Position numbers and translations under genes: made by a program. From the NCBI RefSeq assembly GCF_004376175.1, contig NZ_SNUY01000035.1, forward strand, positions 10,337 through 42,336: a stretch of 32,000 bases of DNA, given 5' to 3'. This document shows positions 12,541 to 32,000 of the stretch, in pieces. Position 1 is the stretch's first letter; each line of letters opens with the position of its first letter. The stretch is from Halalkalibacterium halodurans. Lineage in GTDB: Bacteria > Bacillota > Bacilli > Bacillales > Bacillaceae_D. The notes beneath the pieces were generated by a model. The model saw only the letters and a list, made by a program, of their open reading frames with translations. It made no database searches and was not told the DNA's origin.

Positions 12541-12647
12541 GGAATCGTCCGCGCCAGTAGAGGAATAGAAGGAAAGGTATTGGCGAGCGCTCAATAGTTT
12601 AGTACAATAGAAAAAGAGACAAACGGTTAGATCATAACGGACACAAG

Positions 12648-12685
12648 TAAGACAGCACTTCGACTGGAATGCTGTCTTATCTTTG
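12648..12685 (+). terminator. Intrinsic terminator after dnaN
   Basis: Arms TAAGACAGCA and TGCTGTCTTA followed by TCTTT. Confidence 0.6.
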
Positions 12686-12723
12686 CTAATGAGGCATTTG
12701 TCACGAAGAAAGCGAGGTCAATC

Positions 12724-12945
12724 ATGTCACAACAACTACCAATAACCACATCGTACATTACGTTAGGTCAGCTGTTAAAAGAGGTCGGAGTGATTGATAC
12801 AGGTGGAATGGCGAAATGGTATCTCGCCGAACACGAAGTATTGGTCAATGGAGAGTCTGAGGATAGACGAGGGAAAAAGCTCTTCTCAGGGGATTCCGTT
12901 ACGCTGGCTGATGGGACTGTCATCGATTTGGTTGATGCGGAATAG
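12724..12945 (+). CDS. yaaA: S4-domain RNA-binding protein YaaA
   Basis: 73-aa ORF between dnaN and recF, as in Bacillus. S4-like pattern ITLGQLLK...VLVNGE...RRGKKL..GD.V. Confidence 0.85.
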
Positions 12946-12956
12946 AGGGTACGAAC

Positions 12957-14072
12957 GTGCACATTGAGCGATTAACGCTAAAGCAGTTTCGTAATTATGA
13001 TGAACTCGACGTATCGTTTGAACCGAACGTAAATGTGATCATCGGTGAAAATGCTCAAGGGAAGACGAATGTGATTGAGGCGATTTATTTTTTAGCACTG
13101 GCGAAATCACATCGCACCGCTCGTGACAAGGAGCTCATTCAGTGGGAAGCACCTTTTGCAAGAATCGAGGGGGCGTTTCAAAAACAGAACGGTCCACTTT
13201 CGTTACATGTTGTCCTTTCAGGAAAAGGGAAAAAAGTAAAGGTTAACGGACTTGAACAACGGAGGCTAAGTGATTACATCGGTGCCGTAAACGTCGTCAT
13301 GTTCGGCCCAGAAGATTTGAATCTCGTGAAAGGTAGTCCGCAAATTAGGCGGCGCTTTCTCGACATGGAGTTAGGCCAAATGAGCCCTGTTTATTTACAT
13401 CAGCTCGCAATGTACCAAAAAATCCTTTTACAGCGTAACCATTTGTTAAAGCAGCTCTTTGGCAAAGCGAATTCTGCCCCGATGCTCGACGTACTCACAG
13501 ACCAACTGATTGAAGTAGCTGTAGAGGTGACGAAAAAGCGGTTTGAATTCATTCAACTGCTCCAACGATGGGCGGAAGAAATCCATCAGGCCATTTCTAG
13601 AGGGAAAGAGAAACTAGTGATTACGTATGAACCGTCCGTTCACGTATCAGAACAGTTGAATTTGTCGAAACTAAGAGAAGGATTCTATGAGGCGTACGAA
13701 CAAAAGAAAGAGCGAGAACGACAAAGGGGAACGACATTATTCGGACCGCACCGGGATGACCTTGTGTTTTTTGTGAATGACAAGGACGTTCAGACGTACG
13801 GCTCCCAAGGTCAACAACGGACGACGGCTCTCTCCTTAAAGCTAGCAGAAATTGAATTGATGAAAGAGACGATTGGGGACTACCCGATCTTACTGTTAGA
13901 TGATGTGTTATCAGAGCTTGATGATTACCGGCAATCCCATTTGCTCCATGCGATTCAACATCGAGTACAAACGTTCGTGACAACGACAAATGTGGATGGG
14001 ATTGATCATCAAACCTTACAGGAAGCAACGATCTATGAAGTAGAGCAAGGGTCGTTGAAAAAGAAGGGATAG
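12957..14072 (+). CDS. recF: DNA replication and repair protein RecF
   Basis: 371 aa. GTG start. Contains Walker [10 protein letters not shown], signature GSQGQQRT and Walker [12 protein letters not shown]. Confidence 0.95.
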
Positions 14073-16359: not shown

Positions 16360-18861
16360 ATGGCAGAGCAAGATCAATCAAGAGTAAAAGAAATCAATAT
16401 TAGTCAAGAGATGAAGACATCGTTCATGGATTATGCCATGAGTGTTATTGTGAGCCGTGCTCTCCCCGATGTGCGAGATGGAATGAAGCCTGTACATCGT
16501 CGGATTTTATATGCCATGAATGAGCTCGGGATGACATCCGATAAGGCATACAAAAAGTCAGCTCGAATCGTCGGTGAAGTCATCGGGAAATATCATCCGC
16601 ATGGTGATTCAGCGGTCTATGAAACGATGGTGCGGATGGCGCAAGATTTTAGCTATCGCTACATGCTTGTCGATGGTCACGGTAACTTCGGTTCGATTGA
16701 TGGGGATGCGGCTGCCGCGATGCGTTATACGGAAGCGCGGATGTCGAAGATTTCCATGGAACTCGTGCGAGACATTAATAAAGACACGATCGATTATCAA
16801 GATAACTATGACGGATCGGAAAAAGAGCCAGTTGTCATGCCGTCTAGATTCCCGAATTTACTTGTTAATGGTGCTTCTGGAATTGCAGTGGGAATGGCTA
16901 CCAATATTCCACCACACCAATTAGGTGAAGTGATCGATGGTGTTCTTGCTTTAAGTAAAAACCCAGACATTAGTGTGCCTGAATTGATGGAACATATTCC
17001 TGGTCCTGATTTTCCGACAGGTGCTGAAATTCTTGGCCGCTCCGGTATTCGTAAAGCGTATCAGACGGGTCGTGGATCGATCACTCTCCGTGCGAAGACA
17101 GAGATTGAAGAGCATCATGGGAAACAGCGAATCATTGTTCATGAAATTCCATACCAGGTAAACAAAGCGAAGTTAATTGAAAAAATAGCCGAACTCGTAC
17201 GTGACAAAAAAATTGACGGCATCACCGATTTACGGGATGAGTCAGACCGTAACGGGATGCGGATCGTCATTGAAGTCCGAAAAGATGCCAATGCCAACGT
17301 GCTGTTAAATAACTTATACAAGCAAACAGCTTTACAAACGAGCTTTGGGATCAATTTACTCGCGCTCGTCGATGGCCAGCCGAAAGTATTAAACTTGAAA
17401 GAGTGCCTCGAGCATTACCTTGCTCATCAAGTCATCGTGATTCGTCGTCGCACGGCTTTTGAGCTTCGGAAGGCAGAGGCCCGGGCCCATATTTTAGAAG
17501 GATTACGCATAGCATTAGATCATCTCGATGAAGTGATTTCACTCATCCGCAGCTCACAAACAACGGAAATCGCTCGTAACGGTTTAATGGAGCGTTTCGA
17601 ACTAAGCTATGAACAAGCACAAGCGATCCTTGATATGAGGCTCCAACGATTAACCGGATTAGAACGGGATAAAATCGAAGCGGAGTACAAAGAGCTTATC
17701 GAGCGAATTGCTGAGCTAAAGGCGATTTTAGCTGATCACGAAAAAGTGTTAGACATTATTCGTGAGGAGCTGCTTGAATTAAAGGAAAAATACAATGATG
17801 AACGGAAAACGGCCATTTCCGCAAGTGAGGATATGTTTGAGGATGAGGACTTGATTCCTCGCCAAAACGTGGTCATCACATTGACTCATCATGGCTATAT
17901 CAAACGTTTGCCGATTTCGACGTACCGTAGTCAAAAGCGGGGCGGTCGCGGAATTCAGGGGATGGGAACGAACGAGGATGACTTTGTTCAACACTTGTTT
18001 ACAACGAACTCCCACCATACGATTTTATTCTTTACGAACAAAGGGAAAGTCTATCGTCTAAAAGGATATGAAATTCCTGAACTCGGGCGGACAGCAAAAG
18101 GAATTCCGATTATCAACTTGCTGCAAATTGAACAAGACGAGTATATTAGCACCATTATTCCGATTGAAGAGTTTACGGAGGATCATTATCTCTTCTTTAT
18201 GACGAAAGATGGGATTGCGAAACGCACCCAGTTATCGTCGTTTGCCAATATTCGACGTGGCGGACTGTTTGCGATTAACTTGCGTGAAGGAGATGAGCTC
18301 CACGGTGTTCGTTTAACGAACGGTGACAAGGAGGTCATTGTTGGGACACGACAAGGAATGGCGATTCGCTTCCACGAGACCGATGTCCGTTTGATGGGAC
18401 GTACGGCCACTGGGGTCAAAGGGATATCCCTCACAGGAGACGACCATGTCGTAGGAATGGATATTGTCGAGGATGGTCAAGATGTATTGATTGTTACCGA
18501 GAAAGGGTTTGGTAAACGGACGCCAATCGCCGATTACCGGATTCAAACTCGTGGCGGTAAAGGAATTAAGACGTGCAACATTACAGAAAAGAATGGCCCG
18601 CTCGTATCATTGAAGGTAGTATCGGTGGATCATGACCTCATGATCATTACAGCTAGCGGCATCATCATTCGTCTACATGTTAAAGATATTTCTGTCACTG
18701 GACGGATTACCCAAGGAGTCACGTTGATTCGTGTAGCTGAGGGGGAAGAGGTTGCAACAGTTGCTCGTGTCGATATCGAAGACGATGAGCTAGATGAAGA
18801 TGAGTCGATCGAAGAGGAACGTGATGATCAAAGTGAAGTAGAACAAGGTGAGAATGAGTAA
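16360..18861 (+). CDS. gyrA: DNA gyrase subunit A
   Basis: 833 aa with the QRDR segment [14 protein letters not shown], the active-site region [10 protein letters not shown], and an acidic C-terminal tail. Confidence 0.98.
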
Positions 18862-19056: not shown

Positions 19057-20139
19057 GTGAAGGTTAAATTGAACCAACTCGTTCCAGGTTGCATCGTCTT
19101 GAAACCAATTATGGCAGAAACAACGACTCCTCTTTATAAAGAGAAAACAGTTCTAACAGCGGAAGATATCCAAACCCTTTCGAAATTCCTAATAGATGAA
19201 ATTGAAGTGGAGAACGTACTTGCGAATGGGGAAAAGTTTATCCCTTCCGATAACGGCTTAGGGGCCGAGGCAGCTGCCCTAATGGAAACAGGTGATCGCT
19301 TTAAGGATCGTTACATGCAAGCTGTCGCTAACTATAAGCAAGTATTTCAGGAGTGGGCAGCTGGGACCCCTGTAGAGATGAAACGTGTTCGCCACATCTT
19401 GTTACCTTTGTTTGAAGAAATCGTAGAGAAAAAAGAAGTGTTGCTTCAACTTCATCACTACAGCACGAAAGAAGATTATTTGTATCATCATGCAGTATCC
19501 GTTGGACTTCTCTCAGCGTTTCTCGGTGCCAAGTTAGGTTATGAGAAAGGGGAATGGCTAAAAATAGCGTTAGCTGGAGCACTTGCAGACTGTGGAATGG
19601 CAAAGTTACCGACGTCTCTTTTGACGAAAAACGGATTATATACACTGAAAGAAAAGCATGAAATGCGTGATCATCCGAAATACAGTTATCAAATGTTGAA
19701 AAAGAGGCCTGGAATCGATGGTTCCCTTTTGTCAGCAGTATTACAGCATCATGAACGAGAAGACGGCACAGGATACCCTCTTGGCGTAAGAGGACAAAAA
19801 ATTCATTTTTACGCTCAAATTCTTGCAGTAGCAGATGTCTATCATGCCATGATCTCGGAGCGAAAGTATCGGAAAAAGAAATCACCCTATATGGTGTTGG
19901 AGGATCTCGCAAAGGAGCGATTCGGCAAGTTCAATCCTCATATTGTCCATGTTCTCGTATCTCAGTTAACCCAGCTTTCGGTTCGGACAAGTGTACGCTT
20001 AACCAATAATCGTCTCGGTGAAATCGTCTTTATCGACCCGATGGCACCAACTCGTCCGATGGTACAATTGCAAAATGGTGAGATGATTTATTTAATGAAA
20101 AATTATACTGTGCACATAGAGGATGTGCTTCTTTCATGA
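19057..20139 (+). CDS. HD-GYP domain protein with N-terminal DUF3391-like domain; HD dyad degenerate (AD)
   Basis: 360 aa. GTG start with AAAGGTGAG SD. Motifs in order: YHHAVSVG, ALADCGMAKL (where HDIGK is expected), HPKYSYQML, LQHHEREDGTGYPLG and VADVYHAM. Confidence 0.85.
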   Translation: MKVKLNQLVPGCIVLKPIMAETTTPLYKEKTVLTAEDIQTLSKFLIDEIEVENVLANGEKFIPSDNGLGAEAAALMETGDRFKDRYMQAVANYKQVFQEWAAGTPVEMKRVRHILLPLFEEIVEKKEVLLQLHHYSTKEDYLYHHAVSVGLLSAFLGAKLGYEKGEWLKIALAGALADCGMAKLPTSLLTKNGLYTLKEKHEMRDHPKYSYQMLKKRPGIDGSLLSAVLQHHEREDGTGYPLGVRGQKIHFYAQILAVADVYHAMISERKYRKKKSPYMVLEDLAKERFGKFNPHIVHVLVSQLTQLSVRTSVRLTNNRLGEIVFIDPMAPTRPMVQLQNGEMIYLMKNYTVHIEDVLLS

Positions 20140-20263: not shown

Positions 20264-21073
20264 TTATATGCCAAGGATTTGCTTCTTTTTAGCGTTAAAT
20301 TCTTCTTCGGAAATGATGCCATCATCCAGTAGTTCTTTATATTTTTTAAGCTCATCAGCACCAGAGGTAGACGATGATTGAATTTGCGGCGCATACAATT
20401 GGTTTTGGTACGATTCAATCAAAGCCTTTGCCCTTTTAAAGTCTTCGAATTGAGCATCATTAGCAATGCTAATTGTATTTTGATCATCGAGTGCATTGAA
20501 GGTGCTCCTGCTTTGATTTTCAAGCGACCCTTGGAACGTAAACTGGATATATCCAACTGTTATTTTTCCCATTTTTTTTAATTGGATGCTACTAATTGAA
20601 CGAATACTTATCGTCTTTTCTCCTCGACCTCTCCTATGGAGCCAATTATAAATAATCTTTATTGCCTCAGGTGTAACGATTAACGTCCCATTCTTCCCTT
20701 CAAAAACATCCTCTCGCCATCCTTCTCCTTTTTCGTTTTGTTCACTTACTAGTTTTTGCTCATGTTGGAACGATTCTATTAATGCTTTTGCCTGTTCGAA
20801 CTGTTTATATTGGGCTTCATCATTGATCATGATCGAATGTTCATCACCCATTGCAGCCAATGCACCTTTTTTCTTTTTCGAGCCCTCTAGAATAAGTTGA
20901 ATGTACCCTTGTGCCAAAAACCTTGGCTTTTTAAGCTCTATGCTCTGAATAGACTCAAGGATAATCTCCTTTTCGCCTTCCCCTTTAGAGTGTCGATTGC
21001 CGTAGATGATTTTCACTGTTTCGGGGGTAACGACTATTGCTCCGTTCCAGCCTTCAAACATTTGTTCACTCAA
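20264..21073 (-). CDS. Protein with two tandem DUF4429 / bacterial PH-like repeats and a C-terminal SHOCT domain
   Basis: 269 aa. TTG start with GAGGAGG SD. Repeat 1 (FEGWNGAIVVTPETVKIIY...GYIQLILEG...AKALIESFQ) and repeat 2 (FEGKNGTLIVTPEAIKIIY...GYIQFTFQG...AKALIESYQ) align by eye. The C-terminus ELKKYKELLDDGIISEEEFNAKKKQILG is a SHOCT motif. Confidence 0.8.
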   Translation of the reverse strand: MSEQMFEGWNGAIVVTPETVKIIYGNRHSKGEGEKEIILESIQSIELKKPRFLAQGYIQLILEGSKKKKGALAAMGDEHSIMINDEAQYKQFEQAKALIESFQHEQKLVSEQNEKGEGWREDVFEGKNGTLIVTPEAIKIIYNWLHRRGRGEKTISIRSISSIQLKKMGKITVGYIQFTFQGSLENQSRSTFNALDDQNTISIANDAQFEDFKRAKALIESYQNQLYAPQIQSSSTSGADELKKYKELLDDGIISEEEFNAKKKQILGI

Positions 21074-21152
21074 AGGAATTCCTCCTCTGCATCATTTCTC
21101 TATTTTTAATACTAACATATCTTGCATTTTTTAGATTGAATGATCTGATCGT

Positions 21153-21196
21153 TGGCACAGATCTGGCACAAACGAGGCACAATCCTGGCAGAGCAT
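21153..21196 (+). repeat. Four direct repeats phased at exactly 11 bp (TGGCACA core) in the divergent control region
   Basis: TGGCACAgatc (21153), TGGCACAaacg (21164), AGGCACAatcc (21175), TGGCAGAgcat (21186). Positions were cross-checked against ORF-track frames. Confidence 0.75.
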
Positions 21197-21409
21197 TTCG
21201 ATATTTCCCTAGTAACATGATAGTAAGCCCAAAAACGAAAAATGAGCCATGCATAAAAAATGATATAGGTGGGGGCCTTATGATTTGATTCGCTCATTTT
21301 AACTAACGGTGGGTTTGAAAGGAGGCGGTAGGTGCTGTAGGAAAGTCTCTGTTGCAAACAAATTCGCTCGTAAACTTTAAGGACCATACTAAAATTAGGA
21401 GGAATTCAA

Positions 21410-21829
21410 ATGACAGAAAAGCGATTTGCAGGAACGAGAATCGAAGTAAATGGGATCGTGGTAGCGAAAATTACATCCTTTACACATTCATTAGAGGTTG
21501 AGGAAGCGGATGTAACTGGTTTAGGTGACGTTGACGAAGGCAGCTCGGTGTTCAGGCAAAAATTTATTGCATCTGCTATTGGAGAGACGGCTGCAATGGA
21601 AGGGGTTGTACTTGTAGATGATGCAGGGCAATCAGAGTTAAAACGTGTAGCTGAGTCTGGGCAGGATGCAGTTGTGAAGCATACAGATGAAAATGGGAAT
21701 GGTTATGAGCTTACAGGCTTTTTTACAACTTATGAAGAAGAAGGTTCCATATCAGAAGGCGTTTACACGTTCAGCGGTGAGTTCCGTGTAAATGAAAAAA
21801 GCGTTGTAAGTGGTGATGAGAGTGCCTAA
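21410..21829 (+). CDS. Major tail (tube) protein, small TP901-1/phi13-like type
   Basis: 139 aa with AGGAGG SD 7 nt upstream. The size, beta-rich acidic composition and position immediately before the chaperone and tape-measure genes fit this role. The assignment rests on position and pattern only. Confidence 0.65.
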   Translation: MTEKRFAGTRIEVNGIVVAKITSFTHSLEVEEADVTGLGDVDEGSSVFRQKFIASAIGETAAMEGVVLVDDAGQSELKRVAESGQDAVVKHTDENGNGYELTGFFTTYEEEGSISEGVYTFSGEFRVNEKSVVSGDESA

Positions 21830-22268
21830 ACATACACAAGAAGAACGATTAAGCTTATTGGATCAAAAAGCAGAAGAACTATCACGAATTCAGCAAGACC
21901 AGCTCGTGGCCGATTATGATGAAGCGATAGCTGAACATGAAAACGGTGATAAGCCGAAATATGTAAAATTTGCCGGCGAATATTTTGAGATCTCAAAAGA
22001 AATGCCGTTCCGTTTTGCAACCTTTTACTTCCGCCATTGTGTTCGTAAAGTAAAAGGGAAGACGCAAATGGAAGTACCAGAAGATAAAATGTTTGAGTTT
22101 ATTGAATTGATGCTCGGAAAGAAGTTCTTAGAGCGATTAGAGCAATCGGATGCAGGGGTCCATTTCGTTTTTAAACATATTGTCCCTGACATTATGAGTA
22201 TGTGGGGATATGACGTCAAATCGGACAAGCCATCAGGTGGTCAAAAAAAAACCAAGACCCGCGGATAA
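21810..22268 (+). CDS. Tail assembly chaperone (G-like, zero-frame product)
   Basis: 152-aa acidic protein between the tube and tape-measure genes. It ends 16 nt after an A9 slippery run. Start is ambiguous (GTG 21810/21813, ATG 21816, GTG 21822). Confidence 0.7.
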   Translation: MVMRVPKHTQEERLSLLDQKAEELSRIQQDQLVADYDEAIAEHENGDKPKYVKFAGEYFEISKEMPFRFATFYFRHCVRKVKGKTQMEVPEDKMFEFIELMLGKKFLERLEQSDAGVHFVFKHIVPDIMSMWGYDVKSDKPSGGQKKTKTRG

Positions 22269-22513
22269 TTATTTGGAGCTGGGGCGCGCTTGAGGCGGAC
22301 TTTTGGCGATTTTATCGGATCGATCTTAATAAGGAAGCCTTTACAAACCGTCTCTCTTGGAGGCGGTTTCTCGTTTTCGTTCGAGCGCTGCCTGAGGATA
22401 GTGCGTTCCAACGGTTTTTGAGCGATCGGAAAAACCGTACGATGGCAGAATGGGACGAACAGCAATTATCTGAAAACGCGAAACGGCTAAAGGGGGGAAC
22501 TAGATGGCAATAA
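21810..22513 (+). CDS. Tail assembly chaperone, -1 frameshift fusion (GT-like product)
   Basis: Slippery A AAA AAA at 22244-22250 inside the A9 run (22243-22251). The -1 frame is open from there to TAA 22511-22513. It encodes ...KKNQDPRIIIWSWGALEADFWRFYRIDLNKEAFTNRLSWRRFLVFVRALPEDSAFQRFLSDRKNRTMAEWDEQQLSENAKRLKGGTRWQ and ends 7 nt into the tape-measure gene. Confidence 0.65.
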
Positions 22514-24033
22514 CAATTGGCTCGTCGCCTGGGATTACGTTAGACTTCGAGAAAATCCAAAAAGACGGAAAAGTGTTTCAGGACTTGGCAAGCGATCTGG
22601 GTAACATTAAAACGCACATTCAAGAGATAAATGAAAACTTAGCGAACGGGCAATTCGGTACCGTGTTTCTAGGAATGGTTGGAACTATTGGGACACTTAT
22701 TGTTTCGTTTGCCTTATTAGGTCAATCCGTGGAAATATTTAGAGGGATATTTGAATCATTAAAGAGTCCAATTGCTCCTCTCACGATAGGGCTAATAAAA
22801 TTCATTGCAATCGCAGGGATCATTATTGCCGTGGTAGCGGGAATTGCGGCAGGTTTAATGCACCTATGGAAGACGAATGAGGGGTTTAGAGACACGGTTT
22901 TAACAGTGTGGGAAACAATTCAACGGGTCATAACGACCGTGTTAAATGAAGTCGTCTCCTTTATTTCAGAAAAGCTCGAGATGATTAAGCAATTTTGGAA
23001 CGAGCATGGGGATGCGATCAAACAGGCGGTTTCAAATGTTTTCAACGCGATTTGGGCTGTCATTCAGCCAATTATGGATATGATTTTGGCGATTATGCAG
23101 TTTGTGTGGCCATTTGTACGTGAATTAATCATAGGGGTTTGGAACAACATTAAAGGCGTGATTGACGGTGCTTTATCGTTCATTATGGGGTTGATCAAAA
23201 CCTTTACGGGTCTTTTTACAGGAGACTTTTCATTAATGTGGGAAGGGCTAAAACAAATGTTCATGGGGGCTCTACAATTCATTTGGAATCTCATTCAGCT
23301 ATGGCTTGTCGGCAGAGTGTTAGGGATTCTCAAAGTGTTTATCGGCCGTTTCATCGGCCCATTAAAAACGATGTGGTCGAACGTACGCGGTATTTTCAGT
23401 ACAGGGTTAAATGCGATTAGGAACTTCTTTACGAACATTTTTAACTCGATTCGAAGTACCGTAGGAACTATCATGAACAGTATAAGGACAACGATTCAAA
23501 ACGGTATTAATGCAGCTGTTCAAGTTGTAATGGGCTTCTTTTCTCGTTTTCGTGAAGCTGGGCGCAACATCGTGACAAGTATTGCTGATGGGATTCGAAG
23601 CGCCATTGGTGCAGTTACAGGAGCCATTTCAAGTGTTGCGAGTAAAATTCGAAACTTTCTTCCGTTTTCTCCAGCGAAGGAAGGACCATTGCAAGACATT
23701 CATCGGTTGAACTTCGGAGGACCGATTCGTGATTCGATTGATGGTGATCTTCCAGAAATCCAATCATCTTTGACGAGAGCATTACACGTTCCGGACGTTG
23801 GGATCGGCCAAGTTGGTTCCAGTCCGCTTTTGATGCGCCTCATAAAAAGTTTGGATGCACTTGGACTTAATGGCAATCATGGGATGCTAGCAGGTGCTGG
23901 ATCAGAAAAAGTAGTCATTGAAGTTCCGGTACATCTTGAAGGGAAAGAAGTCGCGAGAGTAACAGCCCCTTATATGGATACGGAACTTGGGAAGCGGAGA
24001 ATTTCAACGGTAAGAGCAAGAGGAGGTCGTTAA
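22504..24033 (+). CDS. Tail tape measure protein (short, 509 aa)
   Basis: N-terminal hydrophobic helices, long helical region with periodic W/F (FNAIWAVIQPIMDMILAIMQFVWPFV...), and the FLPFSPAKEGPL motif common in Firmicute TMPs. No lytic domain is recognisable. Confidence 0.85.
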   Translation: MAITIGSSPGITLDFEKIQKDGKVFQDLASDLGNIKTHIQEINENLANGQFGTVFLGMVGTIGTLIVSFALLGQSVEIFRGIFESLKSPIAPLTIGLIKFIAIAGIIIAVVAGIAAGLMHLWKTNEGFRDTVLTVWETIQRVITTVLNEVVSFISEKLEMIKQFWNEHGDAIKQAVSNVFNAIWAVIQPIMDMILAIMQFVWPFVRELIIGVWNNIKGVIDGALSFIMGLIKTFTGLFTGDFSLMWEGLKQMFMGALQFIWNLIQLWLVGRVLGILKVFIGRFIGPLKTMWSNVRGIFSTGLNAIRNFFTNIFNSIRSTVGTIMNSIRTTIQNGINAAVQVVMGFFSRFREAGRNIVTSIADGIRSAIGAVTGAISSVASKIRNFLPFSPAKEGPLQDIHRLNFGGPIRDSIDGDLPEIQSSLTRALHVPDVGIGQVGSSPLLMRLIKSLDALGLNGNHGMLAGAGSEKVVIEVPVHLEGKEVARVTAPYMDTELGKRRISTVRARGGR

Positions 24034-24786
24034 ATGTTTATTTACGATGGGTTTGATTTTTCGCCTTACTTGACCGTCAACTCAATTAAGCGGCCACTTC
24101 TTCCACCCCAAGAACTAAGCACGATGTCCATCTATGGCAGACATGGAGATTTCTTTTTCCGAAAGCAGCATGGAGCTGTGACGTTAGTCGTCTCTGTAAC
24201 GATTCGAGACCAAACAGTGGATGGGTATCGGAACCGAATCAGGGAGCTTGCGGGGCACTTGAATAAAAGCGAGCCGAAACCACTCATTTTTAAAGATGAG
24301 TCAGACAAATTTGTTCGTGCCTTAATGACAGATGAATCAGATCTTGAAGAGCTTGTGATGATGGGGCAAGGGGAGTTGAGCTTTTACTGCCCAGATCCTT
24401 ATTTTTATGCGATTGAAGATGAAGTCTTCACATTTTCAGGAGCCGGAAGTTATGACTTTTCACGGGAAAAGGGAACAACAGAATCGTTCCCCCTTATTGA
24501 AATCAGGGGAGAAATCGGGTCAACAGGAGAAGTAACCATTGAAACCGATGATACGCGACTAACCTTTAACGGACTGCTCTCACGTGGTGACATTTTAACA
24601 TTGGATAGTCACTATCTTACGGCTTATATTCAAAAGCCAGATGGTTCGCAAGTGTCAGCGATCAATGAGCTTGACCGAATGGATTTTCCAGTGTTGAAAA
24701 CAGGCGTCAATCACATGGCGATCCGTGCCACCGGAGAGGCTGATGTCCATGAAGTACAGATGATGTCCCGAAGTCGCTGGCTTTGA
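24034..24786 (+). CDS. Distal tail protein (Dit / siphovirus tail component)
   Basis: 250 aa. ATG directly follows the TMP stop, with GAGGAGG SD. The N-terminus MFIYDGFDFSPYLTVNSIKRPLLPP...IYGRHGDFF fits the phage tail component N-terminal pattern. Confidence 0.7.
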   Translation: MFIYDGFDFSPYLTVNSIKRPLLPPQELSTMSIYGRHGDFFFRKQHGAVTLVVSVTIRDQTVDGYRNRIRELAGHLNKSEPKPLIFKDESDKFVRALMTDESDLEELVMMGQGELSFYCPDPYFYAIEDEVFTFSGAGSYDFSREKGTTESFPLIEIRGEIGSTGEVTIETDDTRLTFNGLLSRGDILTLDSHYLTAYIQKPDGSQVSAINELDRMDFPVLKTGVNHMAIRATGEADVHEVQMMSRSRWL

Positions 24787-24802
24787 GGTATGTCAAAGGA
24801 TG

Positions 24803-24842
24803 ATAAGAACGCTCTTTGCTGAAGAGCGTTCTTATTTGATCT
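24803..24842 (+). terminator. Strong hairpin (terminator-like) inside the tail module between Dit and Tal
   Basis: Perfect 14-bp arms ATAAGAACGCTCTT and AAGAGCGTTCTTAT with loop TGCTG, followed by an interrupted T-tract (TTGATCTT). Confidence 0.45.
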
Positions 24843-24922
24843 TGGTAAGCTCGAAAACAGCTCTTCGCAAGAAGACACTAGTGAAGGAATGAGAATTTTG
24901 ATTGTGGGAGGTTGAAAGGGGC

Positions 24923-26416
24923 ATGTACTCATATAACCAGCTAAGACGAGTAACGTTTAATCAGCTAGGCCGCATCGCCTACAACAGTCGTTCTTCTCCT
25001 CGTAGAAGGGCTGTTTTTGAACGATTAGCGGGAGCAAGGCCAGTCGTTTTGACACAGGAACGTGAACGGCTAGCTGTTTTAGATCATGCGAATGACATTA
25101 TACTGGAACAGGAGATTAATGGCATTGACACAGTGACGTTTAACATTCCATTTTCTGATGAGAAAAATCAATTTATTCAAAATGAACACCTGATTCAAAT
25201 TATTGATGACTATTACATTATTCGTAAGATTACCCATAGTCGAGGGAGTCAAGGGGTGCCAATAACAGAAGTGTACGCGGAAGCCCTCTGGTATGATTTG
25301 CAGTTCGCGGAGCCGATGGACATTTCGGAGTGGGAAGGCCGCGCCCCAGCAATCGTCATGGCCGATATTTTACGGGGGACGGATTGGAGTGTCGGTCGAG
25401 TTGAATTAATGAATGTGAGGAACGTCTCAGTGGAACCGGGAGTGACGAACAGGTTGGCCGCATTAAGTCAGTTGCCAGAAGTGTATGGGGGGGAGCTTCA
25501 CTTTAATTCAGAAGCAATGACCGTTGACTTTCTCGCTCCTGTTGGCAGACAATCAGGAGCTGCTATTGTGTATGAGAAAAACATTCACTCCATTGAAGCG
25601 ATCTATGATACGGAAGATCTCATCACCCGCATTTATCCGTACGGAAAAGAGAACCTGTCGATTGAGGATATAAATGACGGGGTTCCATACTTGGACATTC
25701 GAGACGATCCGTCTTACGAGTTTACGGATAAGCTGAGGGTGAGAATATTAAAAGACGACCGATTTACGAATCCGTTTCATCTGCGGGAAATGGCAGAGGA
25801 AGCGTTGAAAGTCTTAAGTCAGCCGCGGACATCCTATCATATTAAAGCAGCTGATCTCTCGGAGATGGCTGGAATGAGTCATGAGCAATTTTTTCTTGGA
25901 GATGAAGTCAGGGTATATGATAAAGAACTCGGCATTGATATTGCTACGAGAATTATGGCATGGCAATACAATGTCGCTGAACCGTGGAATACGGAAATAA
26001 TGCTTGAATCCAAGCAGCCAACGTTATCCGATCTATTAACAGGGATTCAAGAAGGTACTGGATTTTTACAGTCAGAGGACACGGTTGACTCATCCGATAT
26101 GTTGGAGCTATCTGTTTTTAATCATATTTTAAATAGCCGTGCAGACGATGGGTTCCATTATTGGACAAATTCAGGCTGGGAAATTGATGCTGTGAATGGT
26201 TACAGCGGCAATGCTTCGTTCAAGGCAACCGGAACGACTGGAAGAAAGGTGTTAAGTCAGACTGTTTATCCAGCTCATCGAGATCATTATGCGATTTCGT
26301 TTCGGAGTGCAACGAAAGAATTTCAGACGAATGACGGCGGTCGGGTCGGCCTTGAGATCATTGTTCGCTATGATGACGGAACAGAAGATGAACCAACGTT
26401 TATTTCGTTAACGTAA
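24923..26416 (+). CDS. Tail-associated lysin/tip protein (Tal; prophage-tail endopeptidase-type N-terminal region) with a C-terminal partial jelly-roll
   Basis: The track ORF is 24902-26416. ATG 24923 is preceded by GGGAGG...GAAAGGGG. The core LAVLDHANDIILEQEINGIDTVTFNIPFSDEKNQF...YYIIRKI...EVYAEALWYDL resembles the Tal N-terminal domain. An unusual ~40-aa basic leader precedes it, and TTG 25049 is an alternative start. Confidence 0.7.
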   Translation: MYSYNQLRRVTFNQLGRIAYNSRSSPRRRAVFERLAGARPVVLTQERERLAVLDHANDIILEQEINGIDTVTFNIPFSDEKNQFIQNEHLIQIIDDYYIIRKITHSRGSQGVPITEVYAEALWYDLQFAEPMDISEWEGRAPAIVMADILRGTDWSVGRVELMNVRNVSVEPGVTNRLAALSQLPEVYGGELHFNSEAMTVDFLAPVGRQSGAAIVYEKNIHSIEAIYDTEDLITRIYPYGKENLSIEDINDGVPYLDIRDDPSYEFTDKLRVRILKDDRFTNPFHLREMAEEALKVLSQPRTSYHIKAADLSEMAGMSHEQFFLGDEVRVYDKELGIDIATRIMAWQYNVAEPWNTEIMLESKQPTLSDLLTGIQEGTGFLQSEDTVDSSDMLELSVFNHILNSRADDGFHYWTNSGWEIDAVNGYSGNASFKATGTTGRKVLSQTVYPAHRDHYAISFRSATKEFQTNDGGRVGLEIIVRYDDGTEDEPTFISLT

Positions 26417-26428
26417 GGAGGAGGAAAC

Positions 26429-26614
26429 ATGTTTTCAGAGCGTTATGGGGTCATTCAAGCCGATTCGTCAAAAACGGTGTCAGAGATAGAAGTCCGGATC
26501 ATTGCCGAAAAATTTTCAGGAGAAGTCCATTTGACTGATGTGATGCTTCAAGGAGGAAGGCTGAGCACGAATTGGACAGGGCATCCAAGTGAGCAGCATT
26601 GGTCGAATGAATGA
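26429..26614 (+). CDS. 61-aa ORF resembling the closing strands of a CBM/jelly-roll domain; in frame with Tal across one TAA
   Basis: AAGGAGGAGG SD 7 nt upstream of the ATG. Sequence ...SEIEVRIIAEKFSGEVHLTDVMLQGGRLSTNW. It may be a separate gene, a readthrough extension or the distal piece of a nonsense-split gene. Confidence 0.5.
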   Translation: MFSERYGVIQADSSKTVSEIEVRIIAEKFSGEVHLTDVMLQGGRLSTNWTGHPSEQHWSNE

Positions 26615-27041
26615 GCATATGTACAGTAAAGACCAATGGGCGAGATTTCTGACCCAAGACGTGAAAACAAATGCAGAAAAACGAGTGCGTGCGATTGAGT
26701 TCAAGCTACTCGCAGAGAACTTTCGAGGACAAATCAACATCACAGATCTCCAACTGCAAGCAGGAAAATTTGTAACAGGTACGGTTCCCTATACAGGCGA
26801 GTGGTTACGTAGGAAGAGTAGTACATTGGATGAACATGACTCAATGGAAGGTGTGAGCGAGCCAATTGAGATTCGTGGTGACCAACCCCGCGTATTTGAA
26901 GGGATAAGAAATCGTTTCTATAACATCGTTGGTCGGGGCCATGAAGCGTTAGCTTTTCCGAATGTGGAAGAAAATCGATTTGACCGACCAAACGTAACAA
27001 CCCCCCCTAGACTTAACACTTTATACGAAAAATTCATTTGA
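26607..27041 (+). CDS. Hypothetical tail protein (~144 aa) carrying a second copy of the closing-strand module
   Basis: The track ORF is 26589-27041. ATG 26607 overlaps the upstream stop (ATGAATGA). No SD is present. Module: RAIEFKLLAENFRGQINITDLQLQAGKFVTG. Confidence 0.45.
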   Translation: MNEHMYSKDQWARFLTQDVKTNAEKRVRAIEFKLLAENFRGQINITDLQLQAGKFVTGTVPYTGEWLRRKSSTLDEHDSMEGVSEPIEIRGDQPRVFEGIRNRFYNIVGRGHEALAFPNVEENRFDRPNVTTPPRLNTLYEKFI

Positions 27042-27042
27042 T

Positions 27043-27468
27043 TTGTTGCGGATCTCTACGAACCAAGGCAGTCTTTTGGATGAATCGTTACAACCTTATC
27101 CTGACATAAGAGATCACCCTTTGAATCTTAGGTATTCGAAAGAGTTTTATTTTGAAGGGGGCGAAGGTGGAAGTGAGATTAAACTGCATGCCTCCAGAAA
27201 TATAGCCACCTTAAATGGCAGAGCCGCCAATAGAAGAAGTCGTACCCTCCCCATCGGTAGCGCTGAATTGAAAATGGGACAGCAACGAATGATGGGGCTT
27301 CCTGCTGGCTCAGGAAGAATTCGTATCGAATTTTACAATCTAGTAGAGGAGACGGTTGAAACGGAATGGGGCGATATTGAACAGCGACAAATTTTAAGAG
27401 ATACAGGAGTTGGTTACTGGGGAGTAGCTGAATTCGCCCATTGGGAGAACGGGAGGTCGAAGCTATGA
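27043..27468 (+). CDS. Hypothetical protein (141 aa), TTG start without SD; possibly the frameshifted continuation of the preceding ORF
   Basis: This frame opens at 26998, just before a C7 tract (27001-27007). The ORF ends in an ATGA overlap with the next gene. No motif was recognised. Confidence 0.4.
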   Translation: MLRISTNQGSLLDESLQPYPDIRDHPLNLRYSKEFYFEGGEGGSEIKLHASRNIATLNGRAANRRSRTLPIGSAELKMGQQRMMGLPAGSGRIRIEFYNLVEETVETEWGDIEQRQILRDTGVGYWGVAEFAHWENGRSKL

Positions 27469-30329
27469 CAAGCATGCAGTTTATGTCATGGAGTCTAAAT
27501 GAACCGAGCAATGCTCAATTCCAGCAGTATGCTGTGGAGACAGAGCCAGGCGTCTGGAGAGTGGATAATCCGAATGCTTTCCTAAACTGGGGCGGAGATC
27601 AGAAAAACTTTTGGATTGCGTTTTTGAAACACCATCAAAAAATATCTTCGTTTGGTCTCCATGACTTCGGCGTTCGGAGTGATGGAACCATTTATAGCTA
27701 CAAAGCTGGTACGACTTTTACCGTGCTTAATGATGAAGGCCAGGTTCAATATTGGATACGTGATAGCCTGCGCTACTTGCTCGATTCCTATCCTTCGATT
27801 GAATGGTTTTTACAAGCTGTTTGCATGGGGGCACCAGTAGAGTCAATGTTAGACAATGAGTCGTCACAAACAACCTTTATTCACCAATTTCGCCTCATTA
27901 CAGAGCAGTATATCGAGCGGTTTCCGAATCGGATTAAAGGGCTGGAAATTGATTTTGAAAAATCAAGCTCACGGCCACGAGAGTTTCGAGAGGCGGAGAA
28001 GTATCGCGACTTTTTAGCAAGAGTTAAAAATGAAATCGCCATTCCGCTAGGCTTAAAACTAAGAGTCAATCTCCATGCGATGACAGGTGATTTTAATCCC
28101 TATTGGTATCAGTGGACAGATTATCGAACGCTAGCTACTGGACGGGATAAGAACGGGAACGACATTTGTGATGAGTGGCAAATTATGTCGTATGATTTTG
28201 CTCATAACAATTCGGCACCTGGGCCGTCAACGCCCGTTTGGTGGCTTCAGCAAGTGCTCGCCCATGTGAATAATGTTTTTCGAAATGAGAACGTTTGGAT
28301 TGGCAATGCTGCCTATGGACGGCGCTGGCCATTAGAGGCGAAACGTTCAGGTACGGCGGTTCGCTACTGGCAATTACTCATGTGGCAAAATGGGATTTTT
28401 AAACATAACATCGGGCGGCCAGCAGATACAGGAGCGTTTACGTGGGTAGAACAGTCCTATATTCCTTATTGTGGTTTCCACGACGATGAATCAGGTTATC
28501 AACGGACGTTTCTCCATTGTTATGACCGATTTCGTGTCGATTACGGAAAGTTACAAGGAGCCTACAACAATCAATCCGTTATCTTTCGCTCTACCTATCA
28601 AGGGCAGCGCTACATTACGAGCTTTTCTAAACACCAAAGATCAAAGTTTTCAGGGATTGAAGCAATTGTTCATAACGGGACCGCACGGGGGAACTATACA
28701 ACTCCGACGCGATGGACTCCGGACGGTTTTTCACAAACGTTTACAGCTTATAACACCCACCGGGCAACATATCGCCCGAACCATGACCTTGAGCGATGTG
28801 AATTGGATGAAGAGGCAGGAAATGTTACGTATTCATTTCACTTAAATCAGCCGGGGAAATATCGGCTCATTGCTGTTGTTTATTTCCCTTATTTGAATGG
28901 CAAGATCCCCCTAACGATCAACGGGCACATGTATACGATAGGGGATGATGTGCCGGACTGGTATCCTTTTTATGTGAATCCAGATCGTCATTTTTACGAT
29001 TGTGGTGAATGGGATCTACAGATATCCAATACGATTCAGGTGGGCGTGACAGAAGACTCGGCGGCGATTATGGGCTTTGTTATCTGTGATCATTTTGAAC
29101 ATGGAATGACGGGCGGTTACGTTGAATATGACGTCAATCTCCAAGCCCCATACAAAAGGGGGACAATTGAAAATGGAATCGTTACAAAAGAGGAAGCGTC
29201 TTTTCCCCAGCACGTCACTTTAACAGGTGAACTTTTACGAAGACCACCTAGACCGGCCATTGTGTGGGAAGATTTATTCGGCCCTCACGCTCGATTGAAT
29301 GCAAACGGTGAAAAAGAAGTGAAAAATTTAGTGGAGACACCGTACTACCAACGGGCTCGCATGGTTACGCCATCAGGAAATCAATATGAAAATCGTCAGT
29401 GTGTCGGAACAGCGGAACTTGTCGGTTATTCAAATGGAAATTGGGAACCATTCGCCGAAAACTATTGCTTTGCCGATGCGCGAGGTCAGTCAGCCCAGCT
29501 ATTACTTCATAAGGAGTTTCAATTTAACCCTCATATAGAAGCGGATGCAACGGCTCTCGATTCAGGTCAGGTTGGCATCCGTTTTTATGCCAAAGGAAAA
29601 GGTCAAACAGGGAATGGGTATTTGTTCCTTGCTGATTTTCAATCTCGACAATACCGACTCGTCTACCAGAGCAACGGACAAAGTCAAACCCTTGCAACAG
29701 CCCCAATTGGGACTTTACAAGTTGGCAGCCGCTATACGTATAGAGTGAGAGTCCATAACGGTAGAATTCTCTGTCTCATCGGAAGCAATACGGTCATTGA
29801 TTATACGGATCAATCGACCAATCGGATGGATAGAGGTGCTCATGGCATTTATGCCTCCGGTTGTCGCATCCGCTGCCATCGCCTTCATGTGGCAACAAAT
29901 GATCGCTATGAACCGATGGAAAAAGTACAAGTCATTGTTGATAGTCAAGAACAACCAATTGCATTAGAAGAATCGAGACCCTATTCCTATGATGAATTGG
30001 GTTATTTGGTGTATTCCGGATTTAATCCTGATCAAGGGTTAGGCATTAGCATTAGCAACGACTATGAAAACTTGCCCATTGCCACGATTCCGTCTTGGAT
30101 AGGGGAGAAGAAGGTAAAAATTCGGTTAGCGGATGCTGGCGTTTGGCTAAGAAGCTTTTATGTGGGAGATTCTGAGGGTTATTCTATTGCTTGGAATAGC
30201 GATTTAGAAGGATTTATGACAACGTTAAAAATGATTGAGGATTATGGATGTAAAGGAGTCGCAATGTGGACGGTCGGGCAGGAAGATCCGAGGGTATTCA
30301 CTTATTTGCCTGGACGTGATGACCGTTAA
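27465..30329 (+). CDS. Large tail-fibre/spike-type protein: GH18-like TIM barrel interrupted by ~550 aa of carbohydrate-binding-type beta-sandwich modules
   Basis: ATG 27465 with GGGAGG SD and ATGA coupling. GH18 catalytic strand KGLEIDFE (D-x-E at 27951-27959), AAYGRRW, and the closing strand CKGVAMWTVGQEDP near the C-terminus (about 30250-30290). In between lie a CBM6/35-like QPGKYRLIAVVYF...PLTINGHMY and a LamG/DUF1080-like GQVGIRFYAKG...GYLFLADF...YRVRVHNGRILCLIGSNTVIDYTD...GAHGIYASG. Confidence 0.8.
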   Translation: MTSMQFMSWSLNEPSNAQFQQYAVETEPGVWRVDNPNAFLNWGGDQKNFWIAFLKHHQKISSFGLHDFGVRSDGTIYSYKAGTTFTVLNDEGQVQYWIRDSLRYLLDSYPSIEWFLQAVCMGAPVESMLDNESSQTTFIHQFRLITEQYIERFPNRIKGLEIDFEKSSSRPREFREAEKYRDFLARVKNEIAIPLGLKLRVNLHAMTGDFNPYWYQWTDYRTLATGRDKNGNDICDEWQIMSYDFAHNNSAPGPSTPVWWLQQVLAHVNNVFRNENVWIGNAAYGRRWPLEAKRSGTAVRYWQLLMWQNGIFKHNIGRPADTGAFTWVEQSYIPYCGFHDDESGYQRTFLHCYDRFRVDYGKLQGAYNNQSVIFRSTYQGQRYITSFSKHQRSKFSGIEAIVHNGTARGNYTTPTRWTPDGFSQTFTAYNTHRATYRPNHDLERCELDEEAGNVTYSFHLNQPGKYRLIAVVYFPYLNGKIPLTINGHMYTIGDDVPDWYPFYVNPDRHFYDCGEWDLQISNTIQVGVTEDSAAIMGFVICDHFEHGMTGGYVEYDVNLQAPYKRGTIENGIVTKEEASFPQHVTLTGELLRRPPRPAIVWEDLFGPHARLNANGEKEVKNLVETPYYQRARMVTPSGNQYENRQCVGTAELVGYSNGNWEPFAENYCFADARGQSAQLLLHKEFQFNPHIEADATALDSGQVGIRFYAKGKGQTGNGYLFLADFQSRQYRLVYQSNGQSQTLATAPIGTLQVGSRYTYRVRVHNGRILCLIGSNTVIDYTDQSTNRMDRGAHGIYASGCRIRCHRLHVATNDRYEPMEKVQVIVDSQEQPIALEESRPYSYDELGYLVYSGFNPDQGLGISISNDYENLPIATIPSWIGEKKVKIRLADAGVWLRSFYVGDSEGYSIAWNSDLEGFMTTLKMIEDYGCKGVAMWTVGQEDPRVFTYLPGRDDR

Positions 30330-30380
30330 AGGAGAGAGGAACAGGACTTACTTTGAGCTTGAAGGATAAAAAGGAGGACG

Positions 30381-31460
30381 ATGAAAGTGGCGAAAACACC
30401 TTACCGTGATTTAGCAAGTGAAAGTATTTTATCGGCTCATCTATCAGGGGTACAGCACGATGTTAATAAAATTCAGGACGTTCTAGGGATGAAAACGGAT
30501 GTGAAGGAGAACCATCCTCTGCTGCCTGTAACGGATCAAGAAGATTCGACCTTGCGTTTTCGAATTTATGAAGCAGATATACGGAATTGGACTACTCAAC
30601 CGGAGCCTGTCATTTACCGAGATGGGACCGTGGTTGATCCAGGGGAATATGAGCTTTATCCAGCATACGGAGCAGTCGTATTTGTGGCTCAGCAGCATAC
30701 GGACGCAGAAGTAACCGCCGATTTTACTCATATTATTGGAGAGGCAAATATTTTGGATGATATTGCCCAACATGCCCAAGAGATTGAACAGATAAAAGAA
30801 AACATGCAGGGCCCTGGTAGCGGAACAGAAGAAGCGGTTATAAGAGTCGGAGGAGTGGAGCCGTTTTATCCTGTTGCTGGAACGTATTTGTCCCATTACC
30901 GTCGCGATTACAATCCGATTATTGAAAGTGGTTATCATACGGAAAGCCATAGACCGGCTTTCGGTATTCTCGTCTACGGAAATACAATCGATGCGTTTCC
31001 CTTTCCGATCACTCGTAAAACAACCTTCGTACGGGCTGGGTTATGTCTAAGAAACGGAAATGGTACCGTAAGAGCGAAAGTGGGCATTTACGCTGACGAT
31101 GGCACAGGCAGACCGAGTAATCTCATCTTTCAAAGCCCTGAAATGACCATTGCTGCTGACGGAGGCTGGGGTTACGCTGACCTTCAGGTCGAACTACAAC
31201 CGGGACTTTATTGGATCGCACGCCATGATGGAGCCGATGCTTATTGGAATGGTTTGCATCAAATGAGTGCGATTCCGTTAATGCGTTTTAATGGAGAAAC
31301 CTTTCTACAAAACCTTGCCGAGCGACCGAACCCTCACACAGTGTTCGGTGGTTATCGAGCGACGAATATTACCTATGGAAACATGCCGCAAACCTTTCCA
31401 ACTAGCGGAGAGCTTTTCCGCAGGGATTACTATTGCTCTCCATGGCTCATTACAGGCTAA
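30381..31460 (+). CDS. Hypothetical tail fibre / receptor-binding-like protein (359 aa)
   Basis: Last gene of the co-directional module. GGAGG lies 3 nt before ATG 30381, so GTG 30387 (9-nt spacing) may be the real start. The C-terminal half looks like a lectin-type beta-sandwich (VRAKVGIYADDGTGRPSNLIFQS...). The call rests on position only. Confidence 0.55.
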   Translation: MKVAKTPYRDLASESILSAHLSGVQHDVNKIQDVLGMKTDVKENHPLLPVTDQEDSTLRFRIYEADIRNWTTQPEPVIYRDGTVVDPGEYELYPAYGAVVFVAQQHTDAEVTADFTHIIGEANILDDIAQHAQEIEQIKENMQGPGSGTEEAVIRVGGVEPFYPVAGTYLSHYRRDYNPIIESGYHTESHRPAFGILVYGNTIDAFPFPITRKTTFVRAGLCLRNGNGTVRAKVGIYADDGTGRPSNLIFQSPEMTIAADGGWGYADLQVELQPGLYWIARHDGADAYWNGLHQMSAIPLMRFNGETFLQNLAERPNPHTVFGGYRATNITYGNMPQTFPTSGELFRRDYYCSPWLITG

Positions 31461-31659: not shown

Positions 31660-31952
31660 CGCTCCCCACTAAAAAGGATGCAGTGTCCAGTAATCCTTGG
31701 TTAGGCCAGAATATCAATAGAAAGTAAAACGAGCAGTATAGAAAACAGATTTAAAATAGAGAGACTACAGAGACTATTATAATTGATTATTTATGAAAGG
31801 AGCTTACTAGGAAGAGTCTTTTCTTCTATACATAGGACGAGTACTGAGAGTATAAAATATTTTGTGTAAATGAAAAATTCCATGTAAAAAGGAAGACCCT
31901 TTCTTGGTAGAATAAAGTCACCATAACCAATTCTAGAAAAGAGGTCTTCCCT

Positions 31953-32000
31953 ATGAATCAGTTTACAACAAAAATTGTCGATGCACTAGTAAAAAAACAA
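31953..32000 (+). CDS. 5' end of an unidentified ORF (MNQFTTKIVDALVKKQ...), truncated by the window
   Basis: ATG preceded by AGAAAAGAGG. Only 16 codons are visible, so no family assignment is possible. Confidence 0.3.
   Translation, partial: MNQFTTKIVDALVKKQ

Follow-up and report, generated by a model that had tools for sequence, protein, structure and literature searches.

The 32,000-nucleotide stretch of Halalkalibacterium halodurans DNA analysed here (contig NZ_SNUY01000035.1, positions 10,337 to 42,336 of the forward strand; hereafter the window) contains the replication-origin region and, adjoining it, a cluster of siphovirus-type tail genes to which no head genes are attached. The tail genes form a 10-kb run of co-directional open reading frames (ORFs) from 21410 to 31460, and a divergent gene encoding a DUF4429-SHOCT protein lies on their left, separated from them by a control region. 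An earlier note made from the sequence alone (hereafter the original prediction) had proposed that this run is a candidate F-type tailocin or a very cleanly truncated prophage. The ORF layout and the coordinates that it gave, including the TAA-ATG coupling at 24031-24036 and the ATGA overlap at 27465-27468, proved exact. The features of the cluster are the following (aa, amino acids).

20264-21073, minus strand: protein with two DUF4429 domains and a SHOCT domain, 265/269 aa (Pfam DUF4429 1.2e-10, SHOCT 2.7e-10)
21154-21195, plus strand: four copies of GGCA(C/G)-N6 in direct orientation, one every 11 bp, between the divergent genes; putative operator or activator site
21410-21829, plus strand: predicted tail tube (major tail) protein, 139 aa, opening the operon; ribosome-binding site AGGAGG (fold search and synteny)
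21816-22268, plus strand: tail assembly chaperone G, 150 aa, placed between the tube and tape measure genes
22243-22513, plus strand: slippery run and −1 frame extension T, giving the GT fusion chaperone (Phage_Gp15 match, conserved run)
22504-24033, plus strand: tape measure protein, 509 aa, both termini complete (phrog_58 at 1e-58)
24034-24786, plus strand: distal tail protein (Dit), 250 aa (Pfam Sipho_tail 2.9e-27, SPP1_Dit, phrog_33)
24923-26416, plus strand: tail-associated lysin or tip protein (Tal), 497 aa (Pfam Prophage_tail 2.4e-79, Prophage_tailD1)
26429-26614, plus strand: 61-aa tail protein, homologue of GBK2 gp18 (phrog_3473 at 8.9e-15)
26589-27468, plus strand: 292-aa tail/baseplate protein, homologue of GBK2 gp19, split in the window (phrog_12827)
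27465-30329, plus strand: GH18-like minor tail protein, 954 aa (phrog_3432 at 1.7e-155)
30381-31460, plus strand: tail-tip accessory protein, 359 aa, homologue of GBK2 gp16, last gene of the cluster

The first two ORFs, those of the tube protein and of chaperone G, matched nothing in the Pfam and PHROG scans and were identified through fold search and synteny. The AlphaFold2 (AF2) model of the 139-aa protein (pLDDT 66) gave lambda gpV and the monocin tube as its top Foldseek matches, with probability 1.0, and homologues sharing 43-61% identity with it are encoded directly 3′ of a Phage_tail_terminator_6 gene in intact phage modules that also carry scaffold and capsid genes. Together with a weak match to the NCBIfam model tube_lmo2291, this fold model and this post-terminator position lead us to predict that the 139-aa product is the tail tube protein. 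The family is tiny (10 clusters among 5.8 billion proteins), and tblastn found no match to the protein among 50,697 phage genomes. Chaperone G is 65-73% identical to its counterparts in the Shouchella modules and 36-64% identical to those of intact phages. Shortly 5′ of its stop codon lies a run of nine A residues at 22243-22251 (CAAAAAAAAACC, 22242-22253), and the −1 frame is open to 22513; this T frame matches Pfam Phage_Gp15 with 28.1 bits for a cutoff of 23. Both the A9 run and the T peptide are kept in all head-less copies that we recovered and in the phage L024, in line with the G/GT pair and the retained programmed frameshift that had been proposed.

The small tube protein, tape measure, Dit and Tal named in the original prediction were likewise recovered, through Foldseek and synteny for the tube and through strong Pfam and PHROG matches for the others. 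Compared with the Shouchella tape measures (594-654 aa), that of H. halodurans shows in the alignment an in-frame internal deletion of about 88 aa, and its 509 aa amount to about half the length found in intact relatives (1050 aa in L024 and 1186 aa in L041). At 1.5 Å per residue, we predict from this length a tail of about 76 nm. The Tal ORF is open from a TTG at 24902, and Tal is 52% identical to gp17 of the Geobacillus phage GBK2.

The 954-aa protein shares 41% identity with GBK2 gp20 and 33% with the glycosylase of phage TP-84. Its likeness to GH18 enzymes, which had been proposed for it, is weak but real, as the PDB search returned the GH18 structure 4wiw with E=6e-6 and SleL with 0.007, and its Shouchella orthologue matches Pfam Glyco_hydro_18; it is a probable receptor-binding depolymerase. 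The "fibre-like" label of the last gene product did not hold in the same way: the AF2 single-sequence model of the 359-aa protein was unusable (pLDDT 34) and the PDB sequence search was empty. It is instead a homologue of GBK2 gp16, 33% identical by tblastn to the translation of GBK2 12113-13105 and 64% identical to its Shouchella orthologue, and between Shouchella orthologues the ratio of non-synonymous to synonymous substitution rates (dN/dS) is 0.06. This gene ends the head-less clusters, whereas gp16 lies between Dit and Tal in GBK2 (L001, 12113-13171), so that a gene has changed its place within the tip module.

The three short ORFs that had been counted between Tal and the 954-aa gene are in fact the 61-aa gene and a single 292-aa gene split by an extra C. 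Indeed, the 150-aa and 141-aa ORFs match consecutive parts of phrog_12827, and the window has seven C residues at 27001-27007 where five compared H. halodurans assemblies have six, the sole indel over 11.5 kb. The C6 version reads as one 292-aa gene, which is called intact (286/292 aa) in 9/9 other contigs recovered. These fragmented ORFs had been held to be a sign of decay; they reduce to one homopolymer indel found in the window strain, and the orthologous loci are not riddled with independent frameshifts. A mutation, phase variation or an error of sequencing could each account for the +1 frameshift, which, if real, would cripple the particles of this strain.

We found no capsid, portal, terminase, packaging, tail terminator, sheath, integrase or lysis genes between 21410 and 31460. 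The upstream region consists of housekeeping genes, in the order rpmH/rnpA, dnaA (9878-11227), dnaN, yaaA-like, recF, remA-like, gyrB and gyrA (16360-18861), then an HD_5/HD-GYP-type gene (19057-20139) and the divergent DUF4429-SHOCT gene. On the other side, an rrn operon begins, with its 16S gene, about 660 bp past the last tail gene of the complete H. halodurans chromosome CP040441, and yaaC, guaB and dacA come next. There is therefore no space for a lysis cassette or for head genes on either flank. A tblastn search (E≤5) for remnants of head, portal, terminase, terminator, neck, holin and lysin genes found none in the head-less loci, in the window as in Shouchella. The statements that head, terminase, adaptor, terminator and sheath genes are missing upstream, and that the window holds neither integrase nor repressor, were thus upheld, and no head genes came to light beyond the flanks. 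What remains is a complete non-contractile tail set (tube, G/GT, tape measure, Dit, Tal or hub, and receptor-binding proteins, with no sheath) whose sole defect in the window strain is the homopolymer frameshift in the 292-aa tip gene. A megablast comparison of the module with the 50,697 phage genomes gave no nucleotide match, and a terminator scan found no intrinsic terminator 3′ of the last tail gene.

H. halodurans shares this head-less unit, which starts at the tube gene, with four or more Shouchella lineages; the other members are the Shouchella oshimensis group, S. clausii, S. tritolerans and Bacillus sp. JCM 19041. Its left boundary, the SHOCT gene and then the tube gene, is identical across genera, although the Shouchella units occupy other chromosomal sites, and in none of these loci, as in the window, are capsid, portal, terminase or packaging genes attached. 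The S. oshimensis group has the gene order of H. halodurans: SHOCT gene or genes, tube, G/GT, a tape measure of 594-600 aa, Dit, Tal, the 61-aa gene, a gene of about 300 aa, a 947-aa GH18 gene and a 350-aa gene. A second type, found in S. tritolerans, Bacillus sp. JCM 19041 and a Logan assembly, has the trunk in common (tube 74-77%, G 65-73% and tape measure 37-45% identity), with Dit, Tal and receptor-binding genes unrelated to those of the first type and carrying CBM_4_9 and Peptidase_S74 domains. A trunk kept while the Dit, Tal and receptor-binding genes are swapped between lineages is, at the level of gene content, the pattern expected of specificity switching. In S. clausii (L026, 10001-16700), a 5.4-kb host operon encoding a sensor kinase, a response regulator, a 2HCT transporter and a malic enzyme stands between arpU, a regulator gene discussed below, and the SHOCT and tail genes; this arrangement joins the Shouchella contexts into one ancestral neighbourhood. 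Two of the head-less modules are entered in IMG/VR as "viruses" of 13-14 kb. A scan of species-representative genomes returned Shouchella and no H. halodurans, although the pattern used fits the window without any mismatch, either because the representative lacks the cluster or because the region is masked in that collection.

In intact phage relatives the terminator gene always lies directly 5′ of the tube gene, and the tape measures have 1050-1186 aa; the IMG/VR prophage L041, for instance, carries a terminator, a tube protein with 61% identity, a G protein with 64% identity and the 1186-aa tape measure. Homologues of this terminator (PF12691) were on phage-size contigs, namely metagenomic phage contigs, in 32/32 cases. 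No head-less locus encodes such a protein to cap the tube.

Is the cluster maintained, as had been proposed, or simply decaying? In H. halodurans the module is present at gyrA-rrnA in 9/9 other contigs, recovered via their identical HD-GYP protein, and five assemblies that we compared with the window over 11.5 kb show 99.7-99.8% identity to it. The coding single-nucleotide polymorphisms (SNPs) within the species comprise 25 synonymous and 17 non-synonymous changes, with no stop codon, giving a ratio of non-synonymous to synonymous polymorphism (pN/pS) of 0.19 (binomial p=1.9e-7). Between H. halodurans and Shouchella dS is saturated and dN is 0.19-0.44, and all ORFs are open save the frameshifted tip gene of the window. 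Among the Shouchella relatives, where dS is not saturated, dN/dS is below 1 (0.016-0.16 in the tail genes). In the S. oshimensis group the flanking host genes have a dS of 0.02-0.06, the genes from Dit to the 350-aa gene a dS of 0.2-0.45 with a dN/dS of 0.016-0.08, the tape measure a dN/dS of 0.16 and the SHOCT gene beside the tube gene a dN/dS of 0.24-0.29 (73-77% amino-acid identity). This contrast between tail and flanks reveals strong constraint in the head-less state, and it also points to allele exchange between strains. Indeed, the higher dS of the distal tail genes (L008 compared with L009, L010 and L012, 12890-20120) indicates that divergent tail-tip alleles were imported by recombination.

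The unit is thus maintained at a fixed locus across strains and species, and one Shouchella neighbourhood was retained through speciation. Accumulating lesions, lack of constraint and variable presence or boundaries, which would characterize a decaying cryptic prophage, were not observed beyond the one strain-specific indel. On these sequence comparisons, neutral decay is excluded for the family and is argued against for the H. halodurans copy.

The control region between the divergent SHOCT and tube genes is hard to align between genera, apart from the GGCA array. Three or four GGCA repeats occur once per head-less locus, in the same place, and were not found in the phage-like loci; in the window, the array pattern has 2 overlapping matches where 0 are expected in shuffled sequence. 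We considered a sigma-54 promoter as an explanation of the TGGCA repeats and dropped it: neither their spacing nor the −12 element agrees with such a promoter, and they are not conserved as a sigma-54 sequence. A perfect Bacillus-type LexA (Cheo) box, GAAC-N4-GTTC, comes directly after the array in each Shouchella copy that was checked, and then TATATT or TATTAT as a −10 element; the motif of this box has no or hardly any further occurrence per 20 kb. A second LexA box is located 42-43 bp 5′ of arpU in S. clausii and S. tritolerans, and the Shouchella ArpU protein matches TIGR01637 with 98.7 bits. ArpU/Ltr regulators turn on phage late genes (PMC7397523). Since S. clausii keeps a LexA box both at arpU and at the tail promoter, 5.4 kb away, the regulator must work at a distance there. 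Further 3′ of the −10 element, the leaders of the Shouchella tail operons (L008, 9885-9960; L014, 9905-9965; L020, 9880-9960) contain a GTAGCAA...GCTAC hairpin, a ATTCGTTA motif and a perfect GTGCCGGCAC palindrome. These leader elements have no Rfam match and are not conserved in H. halodurans, and Rfam searches of the window and of the Shouchella locus L020 likewise found no family, leaving the H. halodurans leader without a known RNA element.

The S. tritolerans cluster ends with a Phage_holin_4_1 holin and an Amidase_3-SPOR lysin. In S. oshimensis a lysin 71% identical to that of S. tritolerans lies next to arpU, and no holin was found there. We had considered this Amidase_3-SPOR gene as a host cwlC-like gene, a view dropped because its 71%-identical counterpart in S. 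tritolerans stands behind a holin gene of phage type.

The divergent gene, 336 bp from the tube gene, had been described as unrelated to the tail genes. Its position and orientation are as stated; however, it is no stranger to the cluster, since a DUF4429-SHOCT gene stands beside every head-less copy found. The protein matches phrog_2700 and phrog_888, two phage families without assigned function, and a PDB sequence search with it was empty. It is fast-evolving, with 31-36% identity across genera, and is present in one to three copies in Shouchella. The number of tandem copies changes even between near-identical Shouchella strains (L008, 6046-6927 and 8923-9783; L009, 7066-9783), and these genes share 53-77% amino-acid identity where the flanking genes share more than 99%, a pattern that recalls immunity or defence genes. 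PADLOC had no match for the SHOCT, HD-GYP and 359-aa proteins, and a known defence system is thus unsupported.

Some neighbouring features deserve mention. The HD_5/HD-GYP-type gene (19057-20139), a putative cyclic di-GMP phosphodiesterase gene, lies between gyrA and the SHOCT gene in every recovered H. halodurans contig, and it sits where the Shouchella clusters have arpU. Exactly at 31845/31846 the window diverges from all other H. halodurans assemblies, which run on into the rrn promoter region, and a new ORF starts at 31954 (MNQFTTKIVDALVKKQ...) in the private sequence of the window (31846-32000). Probably a mobile element has inserted here, between the tail genes and rrnA; it is distinct from the ISL3-family element of CP040441. 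The latter, in strain LB-1 (CP040441.1; L031, 8620-9837), places a transposase gene between gyrA and the HD-GYP gene, where the window has none; insertion sequences (IS) have therefore been active to the left of the cluster in one strain and to its right in another.

We conclude that the region 20264-31460 probably represents, in H. halodurans, a family of domesticated siphovirus tails without heads that is shared with Shouchella, and that its likeliest product is an F-type tailocin. This reading follows from the precise head-less boundary shared by the members, their retention through speciation, purifying selection, the conserved frameshift, the swaps of receptor-binding genes, the SOS operators, the late activator and the presence of a lysis cassette in at least one lineage. 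Within the family, the H. halodurans copy is the most reduced form, with the structural genes, the DUF4429-SHOCT partner and the GGCA array only.

We infer the following course for particle formation, killing and control in trans. The cluster encodes everything that a tube and a tip require, namely the tube protein, chaperone G with its GT fusion arising from −1 slippage at the A9 run, the tape measure, Dit, an endopeptidase-type Tal and four tip proteins, one of them GH18-like. These parts may assemble into a free phage-tail-like particle, an F-type tailocin, which would bind the surface polysaccharide of related bacteria through its GH18-like and accessory tip proteins and presumably kill by an envelope breach driven by Tal and the tape measure. 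In Shouchella, the LexA boxes would put the tail promoter, and also arpU in S. clausii and S. tritolerans, under SOS control, ArpU would activate the late-type tail promoter, and the holin and the Amidase_3-SPOR lysin would release the particles. As regulator and lysis genes are lacking in the H. halodurans copy, its expression and release would depend on factors encoded elsewhere.

The likeness to F-type pyocins and monocins that had been proposed is borne out, as the architecture is the same (PMC11830787, PMC13455828). Like our cluster, the monocin of Listeria is encoded by a chromosomal, head-less siphovirus-tail cluster with a tube protein, two chaperones, a tape measure, Dit, a hub (Tal) and receptor-binding proteins, and the monocin tube fold matches the tube model made for the H. 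halodurans 139-aa protein. The monocin cluster is inducible by UV through the SOS response and ends in a holin-lysin cassette, as does that of S. tritolerans (PMC11830787, PMC7397523). It differs in having the terminator FtbF in the cluster and CI-like and MpaR regulators, compared with the LexA boxes and ArpU of Shouchella, and in its TP901-1-like ancestry; the trunk of the H. halodurans and Shouchella clusters is known only from uncultured phages, and their tip is GBK2/TP-84-like. In addition, the H. halodurans copy differs from the monocin cluster in its lack of regulator and lysis genes and in its DUF4429-SHOCT partner.

The F-type pyocins of Pseudomonas aeruginosa resemble our cluster by their head-less, non-contractile tail genes at a fixed locus, with a conserved trunk and fibre genes swapped between strains. 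The lysis and regulation genes of these pyocins lie outside the F-specific genes. They differ in being lambda-like, in their Gram-negative host, in their regulation by PrtN/PrtR and in the lysis genes located nearby, in a shared R/F locus. In F-pyocins, as here, the main cluster does not encode the terminator, and particles that lack this protein remain able to kill, with uncontrolled length (PMC13455828). The original prediction rightly noted the missing terminator; its use as an argument against function is not decisive, because the F-pyocin terminator lies elsewhere and is dispensable for killing (PMC13455828), so that the lack of one within the cluster is not disqualifying.

Among intact phages, GBK2 (and also TP-84 and GR1) is collinear with the cluster from Dit to the GH18-like gene, with 33-53% amino-acid identity, including the 61-aa/292-aa pair and the 954-aa glycosidase. 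GBK2 is, however, an intact siphovirus with terminase, portal, capsid, adaptor, terminator and holin-endolysin genes, and its tube protein and chaperones belong to another family. The PBSX-like defective prophages of Bacillus subtilis and its relatives are SOS-induced, domesticated, phage-derived killing particles of the Bacillaceae. They are, by contrast, contractile, with sheath and baseplate, have heads that package host DNA and carry a full lysis cassette, none of which is present in the H. halodurans cluster.

Several observations weigh against a functional tailocin in H. halodurans. GAAC-N4-GTTC is absent from the 32-kb window, the homologous position being degenerate (TTTCGATATTTC), and the window has neither arpU nor a repressor, so that the evidence for DNA-damage control comes from the Shouchella relatives. 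No holin or lysin gene is present in the window or, at the place beyond its end where the original prediction had suggested looking, within 10 kb downstream in CP040441; S. tritolerans is the lineage with a holin-lysin pair. A promoter scan found no sigma-70-like match in the 336-bp leader. A profile search, of limited sensitivity, detected no cognate PF12691 terminator in trans in Halalkalibacterium or Shouchella genomes, which differs from the F-pyocin case. The window strain carries the frameshift in a tip gene, and the private changes of its lineage comprise 6 non-synonymous and 3 synonymous substitutions besides the frameshift; these numbers are small and compatible with relaxed constraint in that one strain. 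Most of these points would be expected if the H. halodurans copy were a silent remnant of a tailocin or of a prophage tail module that has lost control and lysis and in which decay is beginning, the frameshift being its first lesion. We consider such a remnant unlikely, though it is the most serious of the alternatives. Indeed, the species-wide SNPs are skewed towards synonymous changes, all other sampled strains keep every ORF, the A9 site and the T frame, the ORFs have stayed open despite a saturated dS to Shouchella, save the frameshifted tip gene of the window, and the four-copy GGCA array is retained.

The missing regulator could also mean that the tail module responds to phages: an ArpU/Ltr-type activator of an infecting or induced phage would act in trans on it, and lysis by the phage would release decoy or competing tails or re-target the phage progeny. 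The control region resembles that of late genes, with repeat sites and no sigma-70 consensus, the cluster has no lysis genes of its own either, the S. clausii arpU acts from the far side of a 5.4-kb stretch of host genes, and in Listeria a cryptic tail element and a phage residing in the same cell are documented to regulate each other (PMC7397523). However, the cluster encodes neither a terminator nor a head-joining protein by which its tails could attach to heads, intact phage relatives yielded no GGCA repeats, and the Shouchella relatives own SOS operators and lysis genes, pointing to autonomous induction; nor was there any H. halodurans ArpU among the best 60 matches of the profile search. 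This alternative therefore seems improbable to us. Equally speculative is the broader proposal that alkaliphilic Bacillaceae share ancient, terminator-less F-type tailocins wired to LexA and ArpU, of which the H. halodurans copy would be triggered by incoming or resident phages in trans as a tail decoy or as a kin-killing device. A prophage split by rearrangement, with its head half elsewhere and both halves still making virions or PBSX-like particles, is the least credible of all. Symmetric inversions are common near oriC, which the cluster adjoins, and H. halodurans is rich in IS (the ISL3 element beside the locus in CP040441, the foreign insert at 31846 in the window). Nevertheless, the same left boundary is found in different genera and at different loci, no cognate terminator was found on any large genomic contig, and the tape measure is half as long as in intact relatives. 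A domesticated F-type tailocin remains the reading that we prefer.

To our knowledge, Listeria is essentially the one Gram-positive genus whose F-type tailocins have been characterised, and none of the papers searched connects halodurans with tailocins or Shouchella with phage tails. Systems of this kind are known; this variant is set apart by the lack of a terminator, the LexA/ArpU wiring, the DUF4429-SHOCT partner, the half-length tape measure and the graded loss of control and lysis between lineages, and the Bacillaceae are a new host group for F-type tailocin-like clusters. The DUF4429-SHOCT partner and the GGCA-repeat operator lend themselves to direct tests, and the short tape measures (509-654 aa) and the GH18-type depolymerase could serve as parts for engineering. 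If the phage-triggered decoy or kin-killing proposal were true, it would reveal a new use of a domesticated tail.

In conclusion, if our reading is correct, H. halodurans and Shouchella carry a genus-spanning family of domesticated tails with a conserved trunk, naturally swapped receptor-binding modules and a graded loss of control and lysis parts. Such a family would bear on competition between strains, including S. clausii probiotics and industrial H. halodurans strains, and its graded series would constitute a natural experiment in phage-tail domestication.

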